A stretch of 64,000 nucleotides of DNA from Pseudomonadota bacterium (GCA_039187815.1 JBCCZI010000003.1:39535-103534); one strand, 5' to 3'; shown: positions 3,833 to 35,347, numbered from the stretch's first letter. Numbers and translations are program-made. Notes: a model not told the origin generated them from the letters alone.

Positions 3833-4591
3833 CTAGCCGATGGTCGCGAGCACCGGGAAGGTCTCGATCAGCCAATAGGCCATGCGCTCGAAGGTGCCGG
3901 TGATCATCATTGCACCGACGACGACCAAAAGACCGCCCATCGCCCGCTCCACCAGCCCCATATGCCGCCGGAACCGTTTGGCCCAGCGCAAGAACGGCCC
4001 GATGAAGAAAGCCGCCAACAGGAACGGAACCCCGAGCCCGAGCGCATAGACCGCCAGCAGCGCCGTGCCCGAAGCCAGCGTCGCCTCCTGCGCGGCAAGC
4101 GTAAGGATCGCCGCCAAGATCGGCCCGATGCAGGGCGTCCAGCCAAAGGCAAAGGCGAGCCCGATCACATAGCTGGTGCCATAGCCGCCAGCCTGGGCCG
4201 GGCCATCCAACCGCGCCTCGCGGTTCAGGATCGGGATGCGCAGCACATGCAGGAAGTGCAGGCCCATAAAGATGATCACGCCGCCGGCGATCTGACCGAG
4301 GATGGTTTTGTTCTGGAGCAGGGTCTGGCCAATGATCGAGGCGCCCATGCCCAGCATCACAAACACGGTGGCCAAGCCGAGCACAAAAAAGCAAGCCGAG
4401 GTGAAGACCCGGCGCTGTGCGGCCTCGTCGATCTCGTCGCGCTCGCCCGATATCTGGTCGAGCGAGGTTCCGCCCAAATAGGCCAGATAGGGTGGGGCAA
4501 GCGGCAAGACGCAGGGGCTGAGAAAACTGATGATCCCCCCTGCAAAAGCCGTCGCGATACCGATCAGGCTGATCTCGATGCTCATCCCCAA
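3833..4591 (-). CDS. ccdA: Cytochrome c biogenesis protein CcdA (DsbD transmembrane domain)
   Basis: GIISFLSPCVLPL and FAFGWTPCIGPILAAIL Cys motifs; multiple TM helices. Confidence 0.92.
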   Translation of the reverse strand: MGMSIEISLIGIATAFAGGIISFLSPCVLPLAPPYLAYLGGTSLDQISGERDEIDEAAQRRVFTSACFFVLGLATVFVMLGMGASIIGQTLLQNKTILGQIAGGVIIFMGLHFLHVLRIPILNREARLDGPAQAGGYGTSYVIGLAFAFGWTPCIGPILAAILTLAAQEATLASGTALLAVYALGLGVPFLLAAFFIGPFLRWAKRFRRHMGLVERAMGGLLVVVGAMMITGTFERMAYWLIETFPVLATIG

Positions 4592-18759: not shown

Positions 18760-18866
18760 GGCCGCAAATCGACCCGGCACAATGCCACACGCGCCGGTGG
18801 GCGCAACGCGCTGACCGACGGCGATCCCGCACCATGCGGGACCGGAAAGCCTGTGCTCTCCGGGAT
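18760..18866 (-). ncRNA. Structured ffh 5' leader (candidate alphaproteobacterial ffh RNA motif)
   Basis: ~125-nt leader with hairpin TCCCGC-N5-GCGGGA (18825-18841) and CAGCGCG..CGCCC.CCGG segment; resemblance to the known motif is from memory only. Confidence 0.4.
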
Positions 18867-28513: not shown

Positions 28514-28633
28514 GCGAGCGGGTTCTATGCCGCAGCCACAAACGCCCCGATGCGAGAGGGGGACGCGCATGTGCATCGAGATGCTCTCTGCCTCCGATAC
28601 CCGGCGTGAGAAGCGGTGCCGGGATCAGGAGCC

Positions 28634-29614
28634 ATGAGCGAGCCCCCCGCCGATCCGCGCACGACCGGCGATCCCGAGATCGCCCGGAAGTGGCTGCTCG
28701 CCTTCCAAAAGGCGCATCCCGACATCGTCGCGGCCACGCCGCCCAAGGGGCAGATCCGCGGCATCGATGCCTATGCACGGCCCGAACTGCTGCACCAGGT
28801 GGTGGCGCAGGCGCTGGAGATCCATCGCCGCCGCCATGGGCGCTGGCCGATGCCCCATCGCCTCGAGCGCACCGCCGATTGCTTCTTCGCCGACAAGTTC
28901 TTTGGCGCCTATCCCATCGATCCGAACCCGGCCGACAAGCTGAATGCCGCGGTCTGGCTGCCCGAGCCGCTGTCCGGGCTGGTGCGTGTGGCCGAGCGGC
29001 CGTGGGTGGCCGACGCGCCCGGTCTGCCTCCGGACGATTCGGTACCGCCTGGGCGCTGGATCCTGAAACTCGGCCTCGGCAATGCCACCAATGAGTGGAT
29101 CGACTGGCCGCCAAGCGCCAAAGAGCGCGCCCGTCTCGACGCCCTGACGTCCGAGTGGTTCCAGGGTCGCTACGGCGTCCGCTGGGGCGAATGGTGGTAC
29201 GCAATTGGCAAGCAGCGGCTGTTTCTCGAGCAGGACCTCACCGAGGCGCGGGCCGGGCGGCCAGAGTTCAAGCTGTTCACCCGCGGCGGGCGGGTCGTGA
29301 TGATCCGAGCCATCTTACACCGCAAGGCCCAAGGCCTGCCCAATGGCGAGCGGTTCTATGACGCCGCATTTCGGCCGATCAAGGGGCAGTCCGTCGGCTA
29401 TGCTCCGATGGCGAGCCCGCCGCCCGCCTCGGCCGAGCGCATGCTCGAGGCCGCCGCCGGCATCGGGCGCCATTTCAACCGCATGCGGGTCGATTTCCTC
29501 GACACCGGGGACGAGCGGCCCTGGCTGAACGAGCTCACAATCGGCGACGTGAACGCCCGGCGGATCATGACGCCCGATCTCGACTGCAGCTTCCGCCGGC
29601 TGATGTTCGAGTGA
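28634..29614 (+). CDS. TupA-like ATP-grasp fold protein (putative)
   Basis: ADK, WILK, LFLEQDL, EFKLF, MRVDFL..WLNELT pattern typical of ATPgrasp_TupA. Confidence 0.6.
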   Translation: MSEPPADPRTTGDPEIARKWLLAFQKAHPDIVAATPPKGQIRGIDAYARPELLHQVVAQALEIHRRRHGRWPMPHRLERTADCFFADKFFGAYPIDPNPADKLNAAVWLPEPLSGLVRVAERPWVADAPGLPPDDSVPPGRWILKLGLGNATNEWIDWPPSAKERARLDALTSEWFQGRYGVRWGEWWYAIGKQRLFLEQDLTEARAGRPEFKLFTRGGRVVMIRAILHRKAQGLPNGERFYDAAFRPIKGQSVGYAPMASPPPASAERMLEAAAGIGRHFNRMRVDFLDTGDERPWLNELTIGDVNARRIMTPDLDCSFRRLMFE

Positions 29615-29617
29615 GCG

Positions 29618-30031
29618 TCAGACCGGCTCCCGCTCGGCCAGGAAGCTGCGCAAATCGACCAGCCGTTTGCGCTCGAGCGAGACATAGACGAAGGCCATAT
29701 TGGTGCGCTCGGCGATCATCTCGCCGGGATAGGGCAGATAGCTGAGCTCACGCGAGCCGAAGGAGGGCGAGGCGCTGCCGACCTGCCAATCGCGGGTCAG
29801 CGTCACATCCACCAGCTTAAGCGACGGCCCGCCCGCCTCGTCCGCGATCTCGAGCGGCACGCCGGCGATGCGCAGATAGGCCGCCTTGTCGCGCGCCTCC
29901 TGAAACCCGTCGATAAACTGCGTCGCCAGCACCTGGAGATCGGCGGCCTGGTTCGCGGGCTCCATATGGCTGTGCAGATGGTCCGCCGCATGGTTGTGAT
30001 GGTGGTGATGGTGCGGATGATCATGGGGCAT
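29618..30031 (-). CDS. His-rich N-terminus hypothetical protein (candidate metal chaperone)
   Basis: MPHDHPHHHHHHNHAADHLHSH (12 His in 22 aa); last gene of the guanidine operon, overlapping the CMD gene. Confidence 0.75.
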   Translation of the reverse strand: MPHDHPHHHHHHNHAADHLHSHMEPANQAADLQVLATQFIDGFQEARDKAAYLRIAGVPLEIADEAGGPSLKLVDVTLTRDWQVGSASPSFGSRELSYLPYPGEMIAERTNMAFVYVSLERKRLVDLRSFLAEREPV

Positions 30032-30410
30032 CTTTGGCCTCCTGCTCCTCAAAGACCGCGAGGGCGGTGTTCAGCGCATTGATCGCGGACGGGAACCCGC
30101 CATAGAGCGCCATCTGCCAGATCACCTGGGCGATCTCGGTCTGGGTGAGGCCCGCCTTGAGCCCACCCTCGATGTTGACGCGCAGCTGCGGTGCGGTCTG
30201 CCCGCCCAGGGCCGTCAGCGCCGCGATCGTGGCGATGTAGCGGTCGCGGAGTGGCAGGCCCGGGCGGCTGTATTGCCGGCCATAGGCGAAATCGACCGCG
30301 CTCTCGGCCATGCCCGGCAACAGCGCGCCATAGCGGGCCTCGAGTGCGGCCTCCATCCCCGGATTGAGCTCGGCCACCAAAGCGCGGCCGCGGGCGAGGG
30401 TGTCTGTCAT
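30021..30410 (-). CDS. Carboxymuconolactone decarboxylase (CMD/AhpD-fold) family protein
   Basis: DFAYG..YSRPGL.LRDR...TIAAL.ALG...GL...EI...ALYGGFP. Confidence 0.82.
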   Translation of the reverse strand: MTDTLARGRALVAELNPGMEAALEARYGALLPGMAESAVDFAYGRQYSRPGLPLRDRYIATIAALTALGGQTAPQLRVNIEGGLKAGLTQTEIAQVIWQMALYGGFPSAINALNTALAVFEEQEAKDAP

Positions 30411-30415
30411 CGCGC

Positions 30416-31678
30416 TCAGCCCTTGTTCGACCAGCGATGGCCCTCGAACGCGCCGTGCGGGATGGTCACCGGCTTGTCGATCAGCGCCTTGTGCTTGCCG
30501 AGCGTGCCGGCCGAGACCATGGCGCCGAGCACATCGACGATCACCCGGGTCCCCATCAGCGCGGTGATGTCCGAGGTGTCATAGGGGGGCGAGACCTCGA
30601 CCAGTTCCATGCCGCAGATCCCTTGGGCTGCGACCTTGGAGGCGAGCGCCAACGCCTCGCGCGGCAGGAACCCACCCGGCTCGGGCCAGCCGGTGCCGGG
30701 CACAAAGCCGCAATCGATGCTGTCGATGTCGAAGGACATATAGACCATGTCGGCCCCGTCCCAGGCCATCTCGAGCGCCATCTCGGCGGTCTTGTCGATG
30801 CCCATCTTCTCCATATCGCCCATGGTGATGATGTTTGTGTTGCGCTCGCGGGCGACCTTCACCGCCTCACGCGGGACCTGCCAGCCGCCGATGCCCACCT
30901 GCACCAGGTTCTTGGCCGGTACGTTGGCCAGGTTGGTCGCGTGGAACCAGGGCGTGGTGTGCATGCGCTCGTCCAGGTCCTTTTCCTGGATATCCGCATG
31001 GCGGTCGAAATGCACGATGCCGATGGTCTTGGAGGTGCACTCGGCGATGCCGCGCACACAAGGAAACCCGATCGAGTGGTCGCCGCCGATCATGATGGGC
31101 AGCGAGCCCGAGGAGAAGACATGGCTGACCGCGCGCGAGATCTGGTCGAAGCTCTTCTCGAGATTGGCCGGGATGGTGAACACATCGCCCGCATCGCAGA
31201 GCGTCATCTGTTCGCGCAGATCGACCCCGATCTCGTAGTTATAGGGCGTGTAGAGAGCGGAGATCTTGCGCACCCCCTGGGGTCCAAAGCGCGTGCCCGG
31301 GCGATAGGTGGTGCCCCCGTCAAAGGGGATGCCGAGCACGGTGGCGTCATAGTGCCCGACCTCGGTGACGTCCTCGGTATAGGGCGCCTTGAGGAAGGTG
31401 TTGATGCCCGCGTAATGGGGCAGCTCGCCGCGCGCAAAGGTCGGGATCGACTTGTCCTCGATGCTGTCGGCGCCGGTCAGGCCCATGCGCAGCGCCCAGG
31501 CGCGCTCCTCGGCCCAGCGCCCCTCGGGGATCTCGGCCTCGGCGCGGGCTGCCTTCCAGCCCTGCAGTTTGGTGAGGTCCGGGTGGTGGGCGCGGGCCCG
31601 CTCGGGCCGGCCGAGTAGGGCCGAGAGATCGGCGCGCGGCGCGTGCCGGCGGGGGCAACGGGGGCGGGGATGGCTCAC
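30416..31678 (-). CDS. gdmH: Ureohydrolase, guanidine hydrolase (GdmH)-like
   Basis: SIPTFARGELPHYAGINTFLKAPY, TTYRPGTRFGP, GGDHSIGFP, HFDRHAD..EKDLDERMHT, SFDIDSID, GTGWPEPGG; downstream of a guanidine-I riboswitch. Confidence 0.82.
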   Translation of the reverse strand: MSHPRPRCPRRHAPRADLSALLGRPERARAHHPDLTKLQGWKAARAEAEIPEGRWAEERAWALRMGLTGADSIEDKSIPTFARGELPHYAGINTFLKAPYTEDVTEVGHYDATVLGIPFDGGTTYRPGTRFGPQGVRKISALYTPYNYEIGVDLREQMTLCDAGDVFTIPANLEKSFDQISRAVSHVFSSGSLPIMIGGDHSIGFPCVRGIAECTSKTIGIVHFDRHADIQEKDLDERMHTTPWFHATNLANVPAKNLVQVGIGGWQVPREAVKVARERNTNIITMGDMEKMGIDKTAEMALEMAWDGADMVYMSFDIDSIDCGFVPGTGWPEPGGFLPREALALASKVAAQGICGMELVEVSPPYDTSDITALMGTRVIVDVLGAMVSAGTLGKHKALIDKPVTIPHGAFEGHRWSNKG

Positions 31679-32457
31679 GGGGTCGGCTCCTCGGCTGGTT
31701 GAGAGATGGCGGGCTTTTGGATCAGGCCCTGGCCGGTCGGCAGGCTCAGAATCTCGAACCCGAGCTCCTCGGCCAACGCGTCGAAGGCCCGATGCTGCAC
31801 CGGATAGCCCTCATAATTGTAGTCATCGAGCACCACATAGCCGCCCGGGGTCATGCGCGGCCAGAAGTGGCGAAAGGCGGCAATCTCGGGCGCGGCGTTG
31901 TTCATGTCGATCGAGAGAAAGGCGACCGGGCCGGTCTCGACGCCCTCGAGGCTGGCGGGCACCGAGCCTTGGACGAAATGCACCCGCTCGAACTCGGCGA
32001 AATTGCGTTTGACCGCATCGATATTGGTGCTCTTGTAGAGGCCGAGGCGCCCGTCTTCGGCCTCTTCCGGCGTGACCAGCGCAGGATCGAGCCCCTCGAA
32101 GGTGTCGAACAGCCACGCCTCGCGGCCGAGCGCGTTCCAGCCGAGGCGCTGCATCACGGCGGCCATCAGGAACCCGGTGTTCACGCCGCACTCGACGAAA
32201 GTGCCGGGCAGGCGAGCGCATTGCTGCGCGGCCCACAGCACCACATGGAGGCGCCAGCGGATCTTGGGGTGGCCGGGGCTCGCCGCCTCGCCGCGCGCGA
32301 GTGCCGCCTGGAAGGCGGGGTCGTCGAGAAAGGCGGTCTGGTTCCAGGTGGCAAGCCGGTCCTCGTGGAAATAGCCCGGGCGGTACCAGTGCAGCACCAT
32401 GCCGAGCTTGCGCAGCAATCGTTTGGCCGGGCGCTTGATCGGTCGCAGATCCACCAT
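31675..32457 (-). CDS. TylF/MycF-family methyltransferase inside the guanidine operon
   Basis: WRLHVVLWAA, GTFVECGVNTG, LFDTFEG, VQGSVP, FLSIDMN, VVLDDY; GAGG RBS before ATG 32457; GTGA overlap with gdmH. Confidence 0.82.
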   Translation of the reverse strand: MVDLRPIKRPAKRLLRKLGMVLHWYRPGYFHEDRLATWNQTAFLDDPAFQAALARGEAASPGHPKIRWRLHVVLWAAQQCARLPGTFVECGVNTGFLMAAVMQRLGWNALGREAWLFDTFEGLDPALVTPEEAEDGRLGLYKSTNIDAVKRNFAEFERVHFVQGSVPASLEGVETGPVAFLSIDMNNAAPEIAAFRHFWPRMTPGGYVVLDDYNYEGYPVQHRAFDALAEELGFEILSLPTGQGLIQKPAISQPAEEPTP

Positions 32458-32470
32458 GGCGTGCCTCGCT

Positions 32471-33223
32471 CTATGATCCGGGCAGCCTCTGGAATGGGAT
32501 GCCTCCATCCCGAGCATCGATATCGTAAGTGATCGTTGCGCCATAGGCCTCTGGTGCATCGGGGTCCCAGCGCACCTTGTCAAAGACCAGAACGCGGTCG
32601 CCGAGCTTGAAGCCTTCGGAGAGGTCATGGGTCACCATAAAGACGGTCATGCCCGTCTCGGCGCGCAGCTCGAGCAAAAAGTCGTGCATGCGCAGCCGCG
32701 TGCCCGGGTCGAGCGCGCCGAAGGGCTCATCGAGCAGCATGACCTGGGGCCGGCCGGCCAGCGCCTGGGCAATGGCTAGGCGCTGCTGCTGGCCGCCTGA
32801 GAGCGCGGCGGGGTACTTCTCGGCCTCGGCGCCGAGGCCGATGCGCTCGAGCACCTCTTGGGCGCGGCCCGCCGCCGCCCGCCGGCGCCCGCCGAAAAAC
32901 CGGGCAAGCCATCCGCCCGCGCCCAGGTCCTCGGCCGCGATCAGATTGTCGCGCACGGTCATGTGGGGAAAGACCGAATAGCGTTGAAACACGACGCCCC
33001 GGTCGCGGCCAGGCTCGCGCGCCGGTGGCTGTCCGGCGATGCGGATCTCGCCCTGGCTCGGCGTCTCTTGGGCCAGCAGCAGGCGCAGGAAGGTGGATTT
33101 GCCGCAGCCCGAGGCGCCAACGATCGAGACGAAGGCGCCCTCCTCGACCTCGAGCGAGATGCCCTCCAGCACCGGGCGGAACCCATAACTGTGCACCAGG
33201 CCCTGGACCGAGACGAGGCTCAT
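32471..33223 (-). CDS. ABC transporter ATPase (NitT/TauT type; guanidine uptake)
   Basis: GASGCGKST, LSGGQQQRLAIA, LLDEPFGALDP. Confidence 0.9.
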   Translation of the reverse strand: MSLVSVQGLVHSYGFRPVLEGISLEVEEGAFVSIVGASGCGKSTFLRLLLAQETPSQGEIRIAGQPPAREPGRDRGVVFQRYSVFPHMTVRDNLIAAEDLGAGGWLARFFGGRRRAAAGRAQEVLERIGLGAEAEKYPAALSGGQQQRLAIAQALAGRPQVMLLDEPFGALDPGTRLRMHDFLLELRAETGMTVFMVTHDLSEGFKLGDRVLVFDKVRWDPDAPEAYGATITYDIDARDGGIPFQRLPGS

Positions 33224-34032
33224 CGCGTCTCACCCGCCCATGGATAGGCGCGCCGGGCATAGAGCCGCAGCCCTTGGTCGATCAGGAAGGCCAGCAGCGT
33301 GATCCAGACCACATAAGGCAGGATCACATCCATCGCCAAATAGCGCCGCACCAGGAAGATACGGTAGCCAAGGCCCTCGGTGGAGGCGATCGCCTCGGCC
33401 GCGATCAAGAACAGCCAGGCGGGGCCGAGCCCGAGCCGCACCGCCTGGACCAGCCGCGGCATCACCTGGGGCAGCACGACGCGCACCGCGATGGCCCAAC
33501 TCGAGGCGCCGAGCGTCTGGGCCTTGACCAGGATCTCTTGCGGGATCTCCGCCACCCGTTGCGCGATGTCGCGGATCATGATGGGCGCGATGCCGATGAC
33601 GATGAGCGCGACCTTCGAGACCTCCCCAAGCCCGAAGACGATGAAGAGGATCGGCAGGATCGCGAGCGGTGGGATCAGCGACAACGCGGCAAAGAAGGGC
33701 GACAGCCCGGCGCCCGCATAGGGCAAGAGCCCGCTGAGCACGCCAAAGACCAGAGCCGCCACCGTGGCGATGCCGACGCCGAGCGCCAGGCGCCAGAGGC
33801 TGGCGGCCGTGTCCTTCCACAGCAGGATGTCGCCCGAGCGGCGGTCGGGCTCGGAGGCCAAGCGCACCGCGGTCGTGCCGATCTGCTCGAGCGAGGGCAA
33901 GAGCTTGTCCGCCGGGTTGTCGGCCCGCCGGATGTCCGAGGCGACCGCATAGGCCAAGAGCAACAGCACGAAGGGCAGCAGGCTGAGCGCCAGCGCCCCC
34001 ACCCGGATGGGCTTTCGGTTGATCCACCGCAT
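33220..34032 (-). CDS. ABC transporter permease (NitT/TauT type; guanidine uptake)
   Basis: NPADKLLPS, IPPLAILPILFI, KAQTLGAS, IAAEAIAST.GLGYRIFLVRRY. Confidence 0.9.
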   Translation of the reverse strand: MRWINRKPIRVGALALSLLPFVLLLLAYAVASDIRRADNPADKLLPSLEQIGTTAVRLASEPDRRSGDILLWKDTAASLWRLALGVGIATVAALVFGVLSGLLPYAGAGLSPFFAALSLIPPLAILPILFIVFGLGEVSKVALIVIGIAPIMIRDIAQRVAEIPQEILVKAQTLGASSWAIAVRVVLPQVMPRLVQAVRLGLGPAWLFLIAAEAIASTEGLGYRIFLVRRYLAMDVILPYVVWITLLAFLIDQGLRLYARRAYPWAGETR

Positions 34033-34070
34033 GGGGAGCGCCCCCGGGGACAGGCCCCGGGGCCGTGGCC

Positions 34071-35132
34071 TCAGAGCGCCCCGTCCGCAGCCATTTGCAT
34101 GTATTCGGTCGCGAAGCGGAACTTCACATTGTTCGCATCCCCCGTGGTCGAGCCATCGGGATAGGCGACGCCGACGAAATCCGCAGAGGGCGCGCCCTCG
34201 CCAAGGATCCCCTTGTCGAACAGGAACTCGGCGACGCTCACCATGGTCTTCGGCAGATCCGCGCCCTCGGTGAAAGCGACCGCATCGGCGGGAGCATAGA
34301 ACATCTCGGTCGAGGCGAGCTGCGCCTTGTATCCGGCGAGATCGGTGCCCGAGGCCTCGGCCATGGCGGTCAGAGCGGCCTCATCCCCCGCGGCCATCAG
34401 GGCCATGGTCTCGTACCAGGCGCCGACCATGGCTTTGCCAAAGGACGGGTTGGCCTCCAGCACCTCGGTGTTGACCACCATCAGATCGATGATCTCACCG
34501 GGGATGTCCGAGCTGTCGAAGACATTGGTGGCGTAGCCGCCCTCGAGAATCGTCGAGACCAGCGGGTTCCAGGTGACGACCGCGGCCACATCCGGCGTGG
34601 TGTAGGCCGCGACCATATCGGCGTCGGACGTGTTGATGACCGCCTCGAGATCGCGCTCGGACAGCCCAACGCTGTCAAGCCCGCGCGCCAGCAGATAGTG
34701 CGAAACCGACAGCTCCACGAGGTTCACTGGCTTGCCCTTGAGGTCGGCGAGCCCGCCCTCTTTGACCAGCACCGCGTCATTACCGTTCGAGAAGTCGCCA
34801 ACGATCAGCGCGGTGGTGTCGATGCCGCCACCCGAAGGGATCGAGAGGGTGTCCATATTGGTCGCCGAGACCCCGTCAAAGGCGCCGGCGGTGTATTGGT
34901 TGATGCTCTCGATGTAGTCGTTGATCTGCACGACCTCGATCGAGATGCCGTATTTGTCGGCCCATTTGTCGATGATGCCGCTGTCGGACATATAGCCCCA
35001 CGGCATCCAGCCCACATAGATCGACCAGGCGACGCGGAACTCGGTTTTCTCCTGGGCCAGCGCCGGGACGGCGGCGAAGGCCGCGGCGGCCACGGCAATG
35101 GCGGCGGTCAGGGATCGGAAGGATCTCGGCAT
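34071..35132 (-). CDS. ABC substrate-binding protein (family annotated as putative urea; likely guanidine)
   Basis: Signal peptide; AWSIYVGWMPW, NDYIESINQY, TNMDTL, DFSNGND, SVSHYLL, WNP, GEIIDL. Confidence 0.88.
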   Translation of the reverse strand: MPRSFRSLTAAIAVAAAAFAAVPALAQEKTEFRVAWSIYVGWMPWGYMSDSGIIDKWADKYGISIEVVQINDYIESINQYTAGAFDGVSATNMDTLSIPSGGGIDTTALIVGDFSNGNDAVLVKEGGLADLKGKPVNLVELSVSHYLLARGLDSVGLSERDLEAVINTSDADMVAAYTTPDVAAVVTWNPLVSTILEGGYATNVFDSSDIPGEIIDLMVVNTEVLEANPSFGKAMVGAWYETMALMAAGDEAALTAMAEASGTDLAGYKAQLASTEMFYAPADAVAFTEGADLPKTMVSVAEFLFDKGILGEGAPSADFVGVAYPDGSTTGDANNVKFRFATEYMQMAADGAL

Positions 35133-35215
35133 CAGGCACGCTCCCGCTCGTCTCGGCTGCGAAACGGGCCGACCGGCGGAGACGAGCCGGGCGCAGGTCG
35201 GTCCGGCGCAGTGCT

Positions 35216-35320
35216 CTCCCGGGCTTTTCCCCCGCCGTGTGCCCGACGCGAATTTGCGCAACCGGGTGTCGCCTCTCGGACCAGACGCTGCCGCGCAGCC
35301 GGAACCCTAGACGACCTGCG
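35216..35320 (-). ncRNA. Guanidine-I (ykkC-yxkD) riboswitch
   Basis: Minus strand CTAGGGTTCCGG...CTGGTCCGAGAG...ACACGGCGGGGGAAAAGCCCGGGAG, upstream of the SBP gene. Confidence 0.93.
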
Positions 35321-35330
35321 ATGAGGGCGA

Positions 35331-35347
35331 TGCACGATGCGTGCCAG
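35331..35347 (-). promoter_or_regulatory. sigma54 (-24/-12) promoter
   Basis: CTGGCACGCATCGTGCA: GG-N10-GC; predicted TSS ~35320 coincides with the riboswitch 5' end. Confidence 0.7.

Follow-up and report, generated by a model that had tools for sequence, protein, structure and literature searches.

Guanidine has only lately come to be seen as a widespread source of nitrogen. The guanidine hydrolase GdmH is, to our knowledge, one of a very small number of arginase-fold enzymes that use nickel, and its maturation is understood only in cyanobacteria (GhaA/GhaB). In Synechocystis sp. PCC 6803 the gdmH-ghaA-ghaB and gimABC genes (sll1077-sll1082) are controlled by a guanidine-I riboswitch and encode, besides the hydrolase and its two HypA-/HypB-like accessory proteins, an ATP-binding cassette (ABC) importer of the NitT/TauT type named GimABC, with the locus under NtcA control (PMC12704784). 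The operon of the comammox bacterium Nitrospira inopinata consists of a guanidine-I riboswitch, an APC permease and a guanidinase, with no candidate nickel-loading protein reported, and the nickel loading of guanidinases in the absence of GhaA/GhaB was stated to be unexplained (PMC11410670). Both Sll1077, the Synechocystis hydrolase, and the N. inopinata enzyme are nickel-containing guanidine hydrolases (PMC12186494; PMC11410670). Here we describe a guanidine-I riboswitch operon from a Pseudomonadota bacterium (GCA_039187815.1), which lies in a 64,000 nt stretch of its genome (JBCCZI010000003.1:39535-103534, the whole of which we refer to as the window) and in which a gdmH orthologue is accompanied by a gene for a small His-rich protein, which we name HisR. 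We read the region as a guanidine-inducible nitrogen-scavenging operon, built on a conserved five-gene unit in which HisR would act as a dedicated metallochaperone or nickel store, and put the probability of this reading at about 60%.

The operon comprises seven minus-strand open reading frames (ORFs) 3' of the riboswitch, and occupies positions 29618-35347, from the HisR stop codon to a point slightly past a sigma54-like motif, which is the interval delimited in a first-pass annotation of the window. Its riboswitch and genes are:

35214-35321, minus strand: guanidine-I riboswitch aptamer (RF00442, 79.1 bits against a gathering score of 63, E 2e-12)
34071-35132, minus strand: substrate-binding protein (SBP) with a signal peptide (TIGR03427, 522 bits against a cut-off of 334; NMT1_2)
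33220-34032, minus strand: ABC permease (BPD_transp_1)
32471-33223, minus strand: ABC ATPase (ABC_tran), its start overlapping the permease stop by 4 nt
31675-32457, minus strand: S-adenosylmethionine (SAM)-dependent methyltransferase of the TylF/MycF/NovP family (PF05711, 63.4 bits against a cut-off of 23)
30416-31678, minus strand: arginase-family hydrolase, GdmH orthologue (PF00491, 257 bits)
30021-30410, minus strand: CMD-family protein of 129 amino acids (aa) (PF02627, 51 bits)
29618-30031, minus strand: HisR, His-rich protein of 137 aa, with 12 His in residues 1-22 and no Cys

The riboswitch score and the profile scans for each gene family bear out the seven-gene operon that the first-pass annotation had claimed, as do the junctions of 38, -4, 13, -4, 5 and -11 nt its description of tightly spaced or overlapping genes. 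The methyltransferase stop overlaps the GTG start of the hydrolase, and base composition is uniform, with a third-position GC content (GC3) of 0.83-0.91 across the seven genes.

The hydrolase matched Sll1077 (PDB 7esr/7oi1) at 551 bits and 9fek, the N. inopinata guanidinase (PMC11410670), at 534 bits, with other ureohydrolases reaching at most 177 bits. It shares 65.7% identity with Sll1077 over 353 aa, and the alignment shows no difference between the two in the metal-ligand blocks GGDHS, HFDRHxD and SFDIDxID. Described at first only as GdmH-like, it is on this alignment a true GdmH orthologue, and presumably Ni-dependent. Its start codon is uncertain, with a GTG at 31678 in the window and a start 12 codons later in the gene of a sister genome. 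The SBP is of the uca/guanidine type (TIGR03427) and its orthologues in related loci are 69-86% identical. The window genome also contains two urease loci with ureG, and UreG is present in all 30 gdmH carriers found among genomes of the order (see below), which fits urea as the product of GdmH. Family scans of the seven operon products matched no carboxylase, CgdAB or GTPase, nor any HypA- or HypB-like protein, in agreement with the earlier remark that both the GhaA/GhaB pair and the carboxylase route are missing here. By these homologies the operon belongs to the guanidine-I/GdmH class and would work like the cyanobacterial gdmH system, falling outside both the GhaA/GhaB and the carboxylase types.

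To define the conserved part of the operon, relatives of the hydrolase were collected by a scan of one genome per species, which found more than 584, and the best 80 loci were retained (L001-L080), mostly from Rhodobacterales, plus Kordiimonadales, Minwuia, Magnetovibrionaceae and Hwanghaeella; their gene content was determined by tblastn with the seven window proteins. In essentially all 80 loci the SBP, permease, ATPase and GdmH genes are followed directly by the His-rich gene, and the HisR start overlaps the gdmH stop in 56. HisR is present in 80/80 loci, the CMD gene in two (L023 and L053, where it is placed as in the window) and the methyltransferase in none, so that only HisR counts as a conserved accessory, and the conserved module consists of the riboswitch, SBP, permease, ATPase, GdmH and HisR. 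A distinct alphaproteobacterial guanidine architecture, as had been proposed, is therefore present in the form of this riboswitch and five-gene module, but the same counts do not support the proposal that all three extra genes together stand in for the known accessory proteins, and a single system of three accessory genes is ruled out by their differing distributions.

The association between HisR and gdmH is exact in a sample of 301 genomes of the order (gdmH threshold E<=1e-120), where HisR occurs in 30 genomes, gdmH in the identical 30, and the two are always adjacent; by simple arithmetic, identical sets of this size would arise by chance with a probability of ~1e-41. The first-pass annotation had suggested a co-occurrence check of the accessory genes with gdmH, and run here it came out in favour of HisR and against the methyltransferase and the CMD gene. 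Carriers fall in 24 of the 112 genera of the order, and the two sampled members of the window's own genus (G145, G298) have neither gdmH nor HisR, implying gain or loss of the operon at the species level. In a class-level sample of 401 genomes (gdmH threshold E<=1e-90), nine carry HisR and ten gdmH, all nine HisR genomes having an adjacent gdmH and representing at least eight families, including the window's own. In a phylum-level sample (201 genomes) HisR was found in two, the window's genome and one other, and in the latter gdmH again lies upstream. The tenth class-level genome (L108) carries a 57%-identical gdmH-like gene with a LysR regulator, no HisR and no riboswitch match, and here a HupE/UreJ nickel permease gene (1002-1619) is found downstream of the gdmH-like gene, in the place of HisR. 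More distant HisR members (26-31% identical) directly follow an arginase-family gene in L096, L097 and L099, and in L099 a HupE/UreJ nickel permease gene (3952-4542) is located directly 3' of the HisR gene.

HisR matched no family in profile scans and belongs to a compact protein family, with 1383 matches at 90% clustering, every one annotated as hypothetical, and only 129 clusters among 1.84 billion 50%-identity representatives. Structure prediction gives a disordered N-terminal tail, MPHDHPHHHHHHNHAADHLHSH, followed by an alpha/beta core of ~100 aa, which in an alignment of 29 diverse members has the consensus FxxGF..DK..FLRL.G(I/V)P...LKL...VG.ASP.FG..EL.Y.P.P...FVYVS. The tail contains 6-28 His in the 80 orthologues (median 12), nearly always starts MPHD and contains GHNH..DHLHSH. 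Among the 29 aligned members it is N-terminal in most, and C-terminal in at least eight distant ones; a relocating, length-variable His tail is what is expected of a metal-capturing appendage. Such a tail on a folded domain, encoded beside a nickel enzyme, is the feature HisR has in common with HypB, UreE, SlyD, CooJ and Hpn, but HisR differs from these in having no GTPase, Zn ribbon, Cys or detectable sequence or fold similarity to them, and likewise shows no sequence or fold homology to HypA or CooT. Its X-His-acidic start (P-H-D after Met removal) presumably recalls the M-H-E nickel site of HypA. The GdmH partners also carry a shared feature, an N-terminal motif (R)xHHPDL(T/S)KLxGWK, which is found in 80/80 HisR-associated GdmH orthologues (31516-31678, minus strand, in the window), is often preceded by a second SHHPxD and reads HHPDF or HHPSY in the class-level partners. 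The HHPDL motif is missing from the HisR-less gdmH-like protein of L108, and alignment to the solved guanidinases 7esr and 9fek begins only at residue 43. The motif could be where HisR docks or hands over nickel.

Compared with the Synechocystis locus, the window operon shares the riboswitch class, importer type and metal-ligand motifs, the supply of urea for urease, and the placement of accessory genes directly 3' of gdmH. It differs in that, in place of HypA-/HypB-like genes, it encodes the unrelated 137-aa His-rich protein, which has no GTPase domain; in being a single tight unit with the transporter genes first; in the extra TylF and CMD genes found in this clade; and in a candidate promoter which is sigma54-like and not NtcA-dependent. 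Similarly, the N. inopinata operon shares the GdmH-type guanidinase, the guanidine-I riboswitch and the absence of GhaA/GhaB-type chaperones, whereas the window operon has an ABC importer in place of the APC permease, plus a His-rich partner encoded beside the enzyme. We also looked for nickel chaperones elsewhere in the window's genome, which is 100% complete: HypA (PF01155) had no match, and the cobW-family GTPases were two UreG copies and CobW/zinc-type proteins, on other contigs and none near the operon, which rules out a HypA/HypB pair encoded elsewhere. HypA is also missing from 23 of the 29 other carriers in the order, and is distant from the operon in the remaining six. Taken together, the obligate linkage to gdmH, the His tail, the rarity of HypA and the unexplained nickel loading in the absence of GhaA/GhaB point to HisR as the foremost candidate for a new factor that delivers or stores nickel, one that is probably dedicated to GdmH. 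In the literature searched, which did not cover Funck et al. 2022, we found no description of HisR, no guanidine riboswitch reported to control a TylF or CMD gene, and no urease cluster described as containing a CMD gene.

The aptamer match covers the entire RF00442 model (ykkC subtype 1, positions 1-107 of 107) and ends 82 nt upstream of the SBP start, on the same strand. At least 73 of 77 related loci have the aptamer upstream of the SBP gene (66 by strict pattern, with seven of seven pattern-negative loci tested positive by cmscan), as do five of the seven class-level loci for which the upstream region was available. Three further elements flank it:

35331-35346, minus strand: sigma54-like -24/-12 element, TGGCAC-N5-GTGCA, 20 nt before the CTAGGG of the aptamer
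35146-35187, minus strand: expression-platform hairpin GCUCGUCUC / GAGACGAGC, 9 bp with a 24-nt loop
35421-35434, minus strand: terminator-like hairpin with T-run, ACCGGTCCGCTGGT then TTTTTGATCA, ending the upstream gene

The stem arms of the leader hairpin (35187-35179 and 35154-35146) abut the Shine-Dalgarno sequence GGGAG (35145-35141), and no U-run follows. An exact-stem search found a hairpin of 8-10 bp ~30 nt 3' of the aptamer in many loci, the pattern GUUC[C/U]GCC..GGC[G/A]G[A/G]AC being matched in 36 of 77, while others carry compensatory changes such as GUUCCGCG/CGCGGAAC and CGUCCCGU/ACGGGACG. By this comparison the leader hairpin is conserved and covarying, and as it abuts the Shine-Dalgarno sequence and is followed by no U-run it suggests that control is exerted on translation or through Rho, and not by a classical terminator; a terminator-type expression platform was rejected for want of the U-run. 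RNAalifold on a MAFFT alignment of the leaders recovered only the aptamer pairs. A regular-expression search across the related loci found the strict sigma54-like motif in L034, L049 and L069 besides the window and nowhere else, L068 and L072 having near matches; the motif is at best a lineage-specific candidate for a nitrogen-limitation promoter, by analogy with the NtcA control of the cyanobacterial locus. Many of the other related loci appear by eye, with no count made, to have a TTGAC- or CTTGC-like -35 hexamer.

Upstream of the operon lies a DAO/GCV_T gene, dimethylglycine-dehydrogenase-like, and the terminator-like hairpin at its end is predicted to insulate the operon from upstream read-through. 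On the other side, a 332-aa ORF (28616-29614, plus strand, no Pfam match) converges on the operon and ends 4 nt from the HisR stop. With this terminator-like hairpin upstream and the convergent ORF 4 nt past its last gene, the operon is well delimited. The sole other Rfam match in the window is an ffh small RNA (RF01793, 49.5 bits; 18784-18835, minus strand).

Under the reading that we favour, free guanidine would bind the guanidine-I aptamer and switch on expression of the operon, possibly from a sigma54-type promoter start in this genome, with the seven genes presumably co-transcribed. The GimABC-like ABC importer would take guanidine up, the GdmH orthologue would convert it to urea and ammonium, and the two ureases of the genome would process the resulting urea. 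HisR would capture nickel via the variable His tail and the conserved motifs (M)PHD and GHNH..DHLHSH within it, dock on GdmH through its conserved core and load the dinuclear site, thereby replacing the HypA/HypB-like GhaA/GhaB pair of the cyanobacteria.

The seven-gene layout is confined to the window genome and two related assemblies (L101 and L147), and the methyltransferase and CMD genes are later additions in this small clade, not needed for the pathway in most carriers. In a codon-level comparison between the window and L147 (dS 0.7-2.0), the ratio of non-synonymous to synonymous substitution rates (dN/dS) was 0.06 for the SBP, 0.26 for the permease, 0.20 for the ATPase, 0.07 for the methyltransferase, 0.04 for GdmH, 0.07 for CMD and 0.16 for HisR. 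These values (0.04-0.26) imply purifying selection on all seven genes, with both additions maintained as working genes. The junction between the ATPase gene and gdmH, which holds the methyltransferase in the window, holds other genes elsewhere. A gene for CutA1, a divalent-ion tolerance protein, occupies it in L004 (9697-10032; PF03091, 85 bits), L052 (9648-9962) and L053 (9667-10014), the latter two copies being assigned by sequence resemblance, and inserts of 1.7-2.2 kb are found in L020 (7853-9972), L033, L076 and L045. The L020 insert encodes an RNA-ligase-like ORF and an HD-domain/kinase-like ORF, and the other three, read on the plus strand, contain only long GC-rich frames. The junction evidently tolerates cargo, several of the cargos having a metal flavour.

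In the methyltransferase, the PF05711 match covers the catalytic core (residues 81-216) and the SAM-binding region is retained. Its best solved relatives are the O-methyltransferases 5i10/4cdz at 48 bits, with MycF and NovP also matched and the solved members scoring 29-48 bits overall. At the putative acidic metal-binding triad (DxD ... DD), the alignment to 5i10 shows LDDY kept and LDGD replaced by IDMN (the first DxD reads D-M-N). The copies in the sister assemblies L101 and L147 are 83% identical, and the next closest proteins at most 56%. Two of the three contexts in which the nearest relatives occur are exopolysaccharide/O-antigen clusters (L103/L104, L149). The third is a row of GntR, arginase-family (331 aa) and glutamine-synthetase-like genes which ends in a 56%-identical TylF homologue (L102, 5548-8741), in GCA_038528605.1, a genome whose own guanidine operon (L056) has no methyltransferase. 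The window gene was probably recruited from sugar O-methyltransferases, but unlike TylF, MycF and NovP it is found in a nitrogen-scavenging operon and not in a glycoside or polysaccharide pathway. A recent horizontal insertion is unsupported by composition, and the divergence from L147 indicates long residence. A weak paralogue (27% identity over 143 aa by tblastn) is found elsewhere in the window, at 836-1255 on the plus strand.

The CMD protein resembles PcaC and AhpD-like proteins (PF02627) in being a single CMD domain of ~125 aa, and matched 2af7 and 4g9q at 72-93 bits. Its score to the PcaC equivalog TIGR02425 is 49.3 bits against a cut-off of 155.7, and it contains no Cys and hence no CxxC motif, which together rule out a bona fide PcaC or an AhpD-type peroxidase; in contrast to PcaC, its neighbours are gdmH and the His-rich gene, with no pca genes nearby. 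Orthologues with 73-82% identity are common in Rhodobacterales and do not track gdmH: one is present in 43/301 genomes of the order, and among the 30 gdmH carriers seven have a match at E<=1e-25, only four of these at 76% identity or more, whilst 23 have none anywhere. Among the 30 best CMD loci, seven place the gene between ureF and ureG (L120, L121, L127, L128, L130, L131 and L143), one by urtD/urtE behind a LysR gene and one between def and fmt, the rest being assorted. The ureF-CMD-ureG arrangement also occurs in Roseobacter sp. HKCCD9010 (L105/L106), and the embedded copies are 63-81% identical to the window's copy. In the window genome the guanidine-operon copy is the only one; in its urease cluster nothing separates ureF from ureG, and another CMD paralogue lies upstream of ureC. 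CMD is thus recurrently associated with urea and nickel-enzyme loci, and probably serves something common to urease and GdmH, which could be nickel-enzyme maturation or urea-related chemistry.

A possible, though not preferred, account of these two genes is that they are passengers in a well-expressed operon, sharing its regulation whilst having roles unrelated to guanidine, such as surface sugar methylation or a urease-linked function. Their sporadic distribution (methyltransferase 0/80, CMD 2/80) fits this, as do the exopolysaccharide/O-antigen contexts of the methyltransferase relatives, the many unrelated settings of the CMD family (def-fmt, ilv, ksgA, next to tupA) and the different inserts which the same junction holds elsewhere, either CutA1 or the RNA-ligase and HD-kinase pair of L020. 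The overlapping or near-overlapping junctions and uniform composition speak instead for genes that have become integrated into the operon, both have been kept over considerable divergence, and the recurrent placement of CMD by two nickel-enzyme systems is unlikely to be pure chance.

An alternative that bears directly on HisR, that the first-pass annotation had raised for ureEG and that we consider unlikely, is that GdmH is nickel-loaded by the urease accessory proteins (UreE, UreF, UreG, UreD) or spontaneously, with HisR acting as a metal buffer, a subunit or stabiliser of GdmH, or a regulator. Most of the observations which weigh against HisR as a dedicated nickel factor are also those which favour this alternative. 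Urease accessory proteins are encoded in every carrier (UreG in 30/30) and could supply the nickel instead, and the operon abuts ureC-ureE-ureF-ureG in two alphaproteobacterial families (L111 and L114). A CMD orthologue is mobile between two settings, the urease accessory cluster and the guanidine operon. The comammox guanidinase is partly active without any chaperone (PMC11410670), so that the need for one may not be absolute. Across the 29 aligned members no His or Cys is conserved in the HisR core, hence any specific metal site must sit in the tail, and His-rich tails also bind Zn, Co and Cu. To these must be added that the predicted HisR fold has no match among known folds and, as regards the regulation of the operon, that a conserved sigma54 promoter is ruled out by the presence of the motif in few lineages only and that single-sequence leader folds are no better than those of shuffled sequence (z +0.8 to +1.4). 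On the other hand, urease genes are to be expected in carriers anyway, urea being the product of GdmH, and HisR tracks gdmH and not urease, as all 271 gdmH-less genomes of the order are without it. A relocating tail of variable length is moreover typical of metal capture, and in L099 HisR is linked to HupE/UreJ. In L111 the interval from ureG to the SBP gene contains no riboswitch that reaches the gathering score, and the guanidine operon there may hence be read through from urease. Both L111 and L114 match the 5' ureB small RNA family RF02514.

A bolder extension of the favoured reading, which we regard as distinctly unlikely, is that HisR founds a new class of GTPase-independent nickel insertases, serving an arginase-fold enzyme, with nickel captured by the tail and hand-over to GdmH perhaps via HHPDL and CMD as a second auxiliary shared by urease and GdmH, which would together amount to an undescribed nickel route. 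Least probable of all, and hard to credit, is that the seven-gene form handles a modified guanidine (methyl- or hydroxy-guanidine or a guanidino sugar) with the methyltransferase and CMD protein as catalytic steps, for although both genes are translationally coupled (junctions of 13, -4, 5 and -11 nt) and at dN/dS 0.07 over dS 0.8-2.0, the 56%-identical TylF homologue of L102 stands beside other arginase-family and glutamine-synthetase-like genes, and the dimethylglycine-dehydrogenase-like upstream neighbour is of a demethylating type, the aptamer is a standard guanidine-I, a terminator-like site separates that neighbour from the operon, GdmH is 94.6% identical between the two lineages of the seven-gene clade and 83-93% identical to orthologues lacking both genes, which indicates no change in specificity, the methyltransferase is missing from 80/80 other loci with two of three contexts of its nearest relatives being polysaccharide clusters, and CMD scores 49 bits against a PcaC cut-off of 156.

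HisR is of wider interest than the two added genes for the methyltransferase and the CMD protein, although the placement of CMD between ureF and ureG is a hint that urease clusters contain an accessory factor so far unrecognised. The five-gene module is uniform, occurring in about a tenth of the sampled genomes of the order (30/301) and in at least seven other alphaproteobacterial families, and HisR is its one gene of unknown function and an obligate partner of GdmH, which makes the question of nickel loading directly testable with one small protein. If our reading is true, HisR would represent a new metallochaperone family, would allow better heterologous production of active guanidinase, and would serve as a marker for guanidine use in marine metagenomes.

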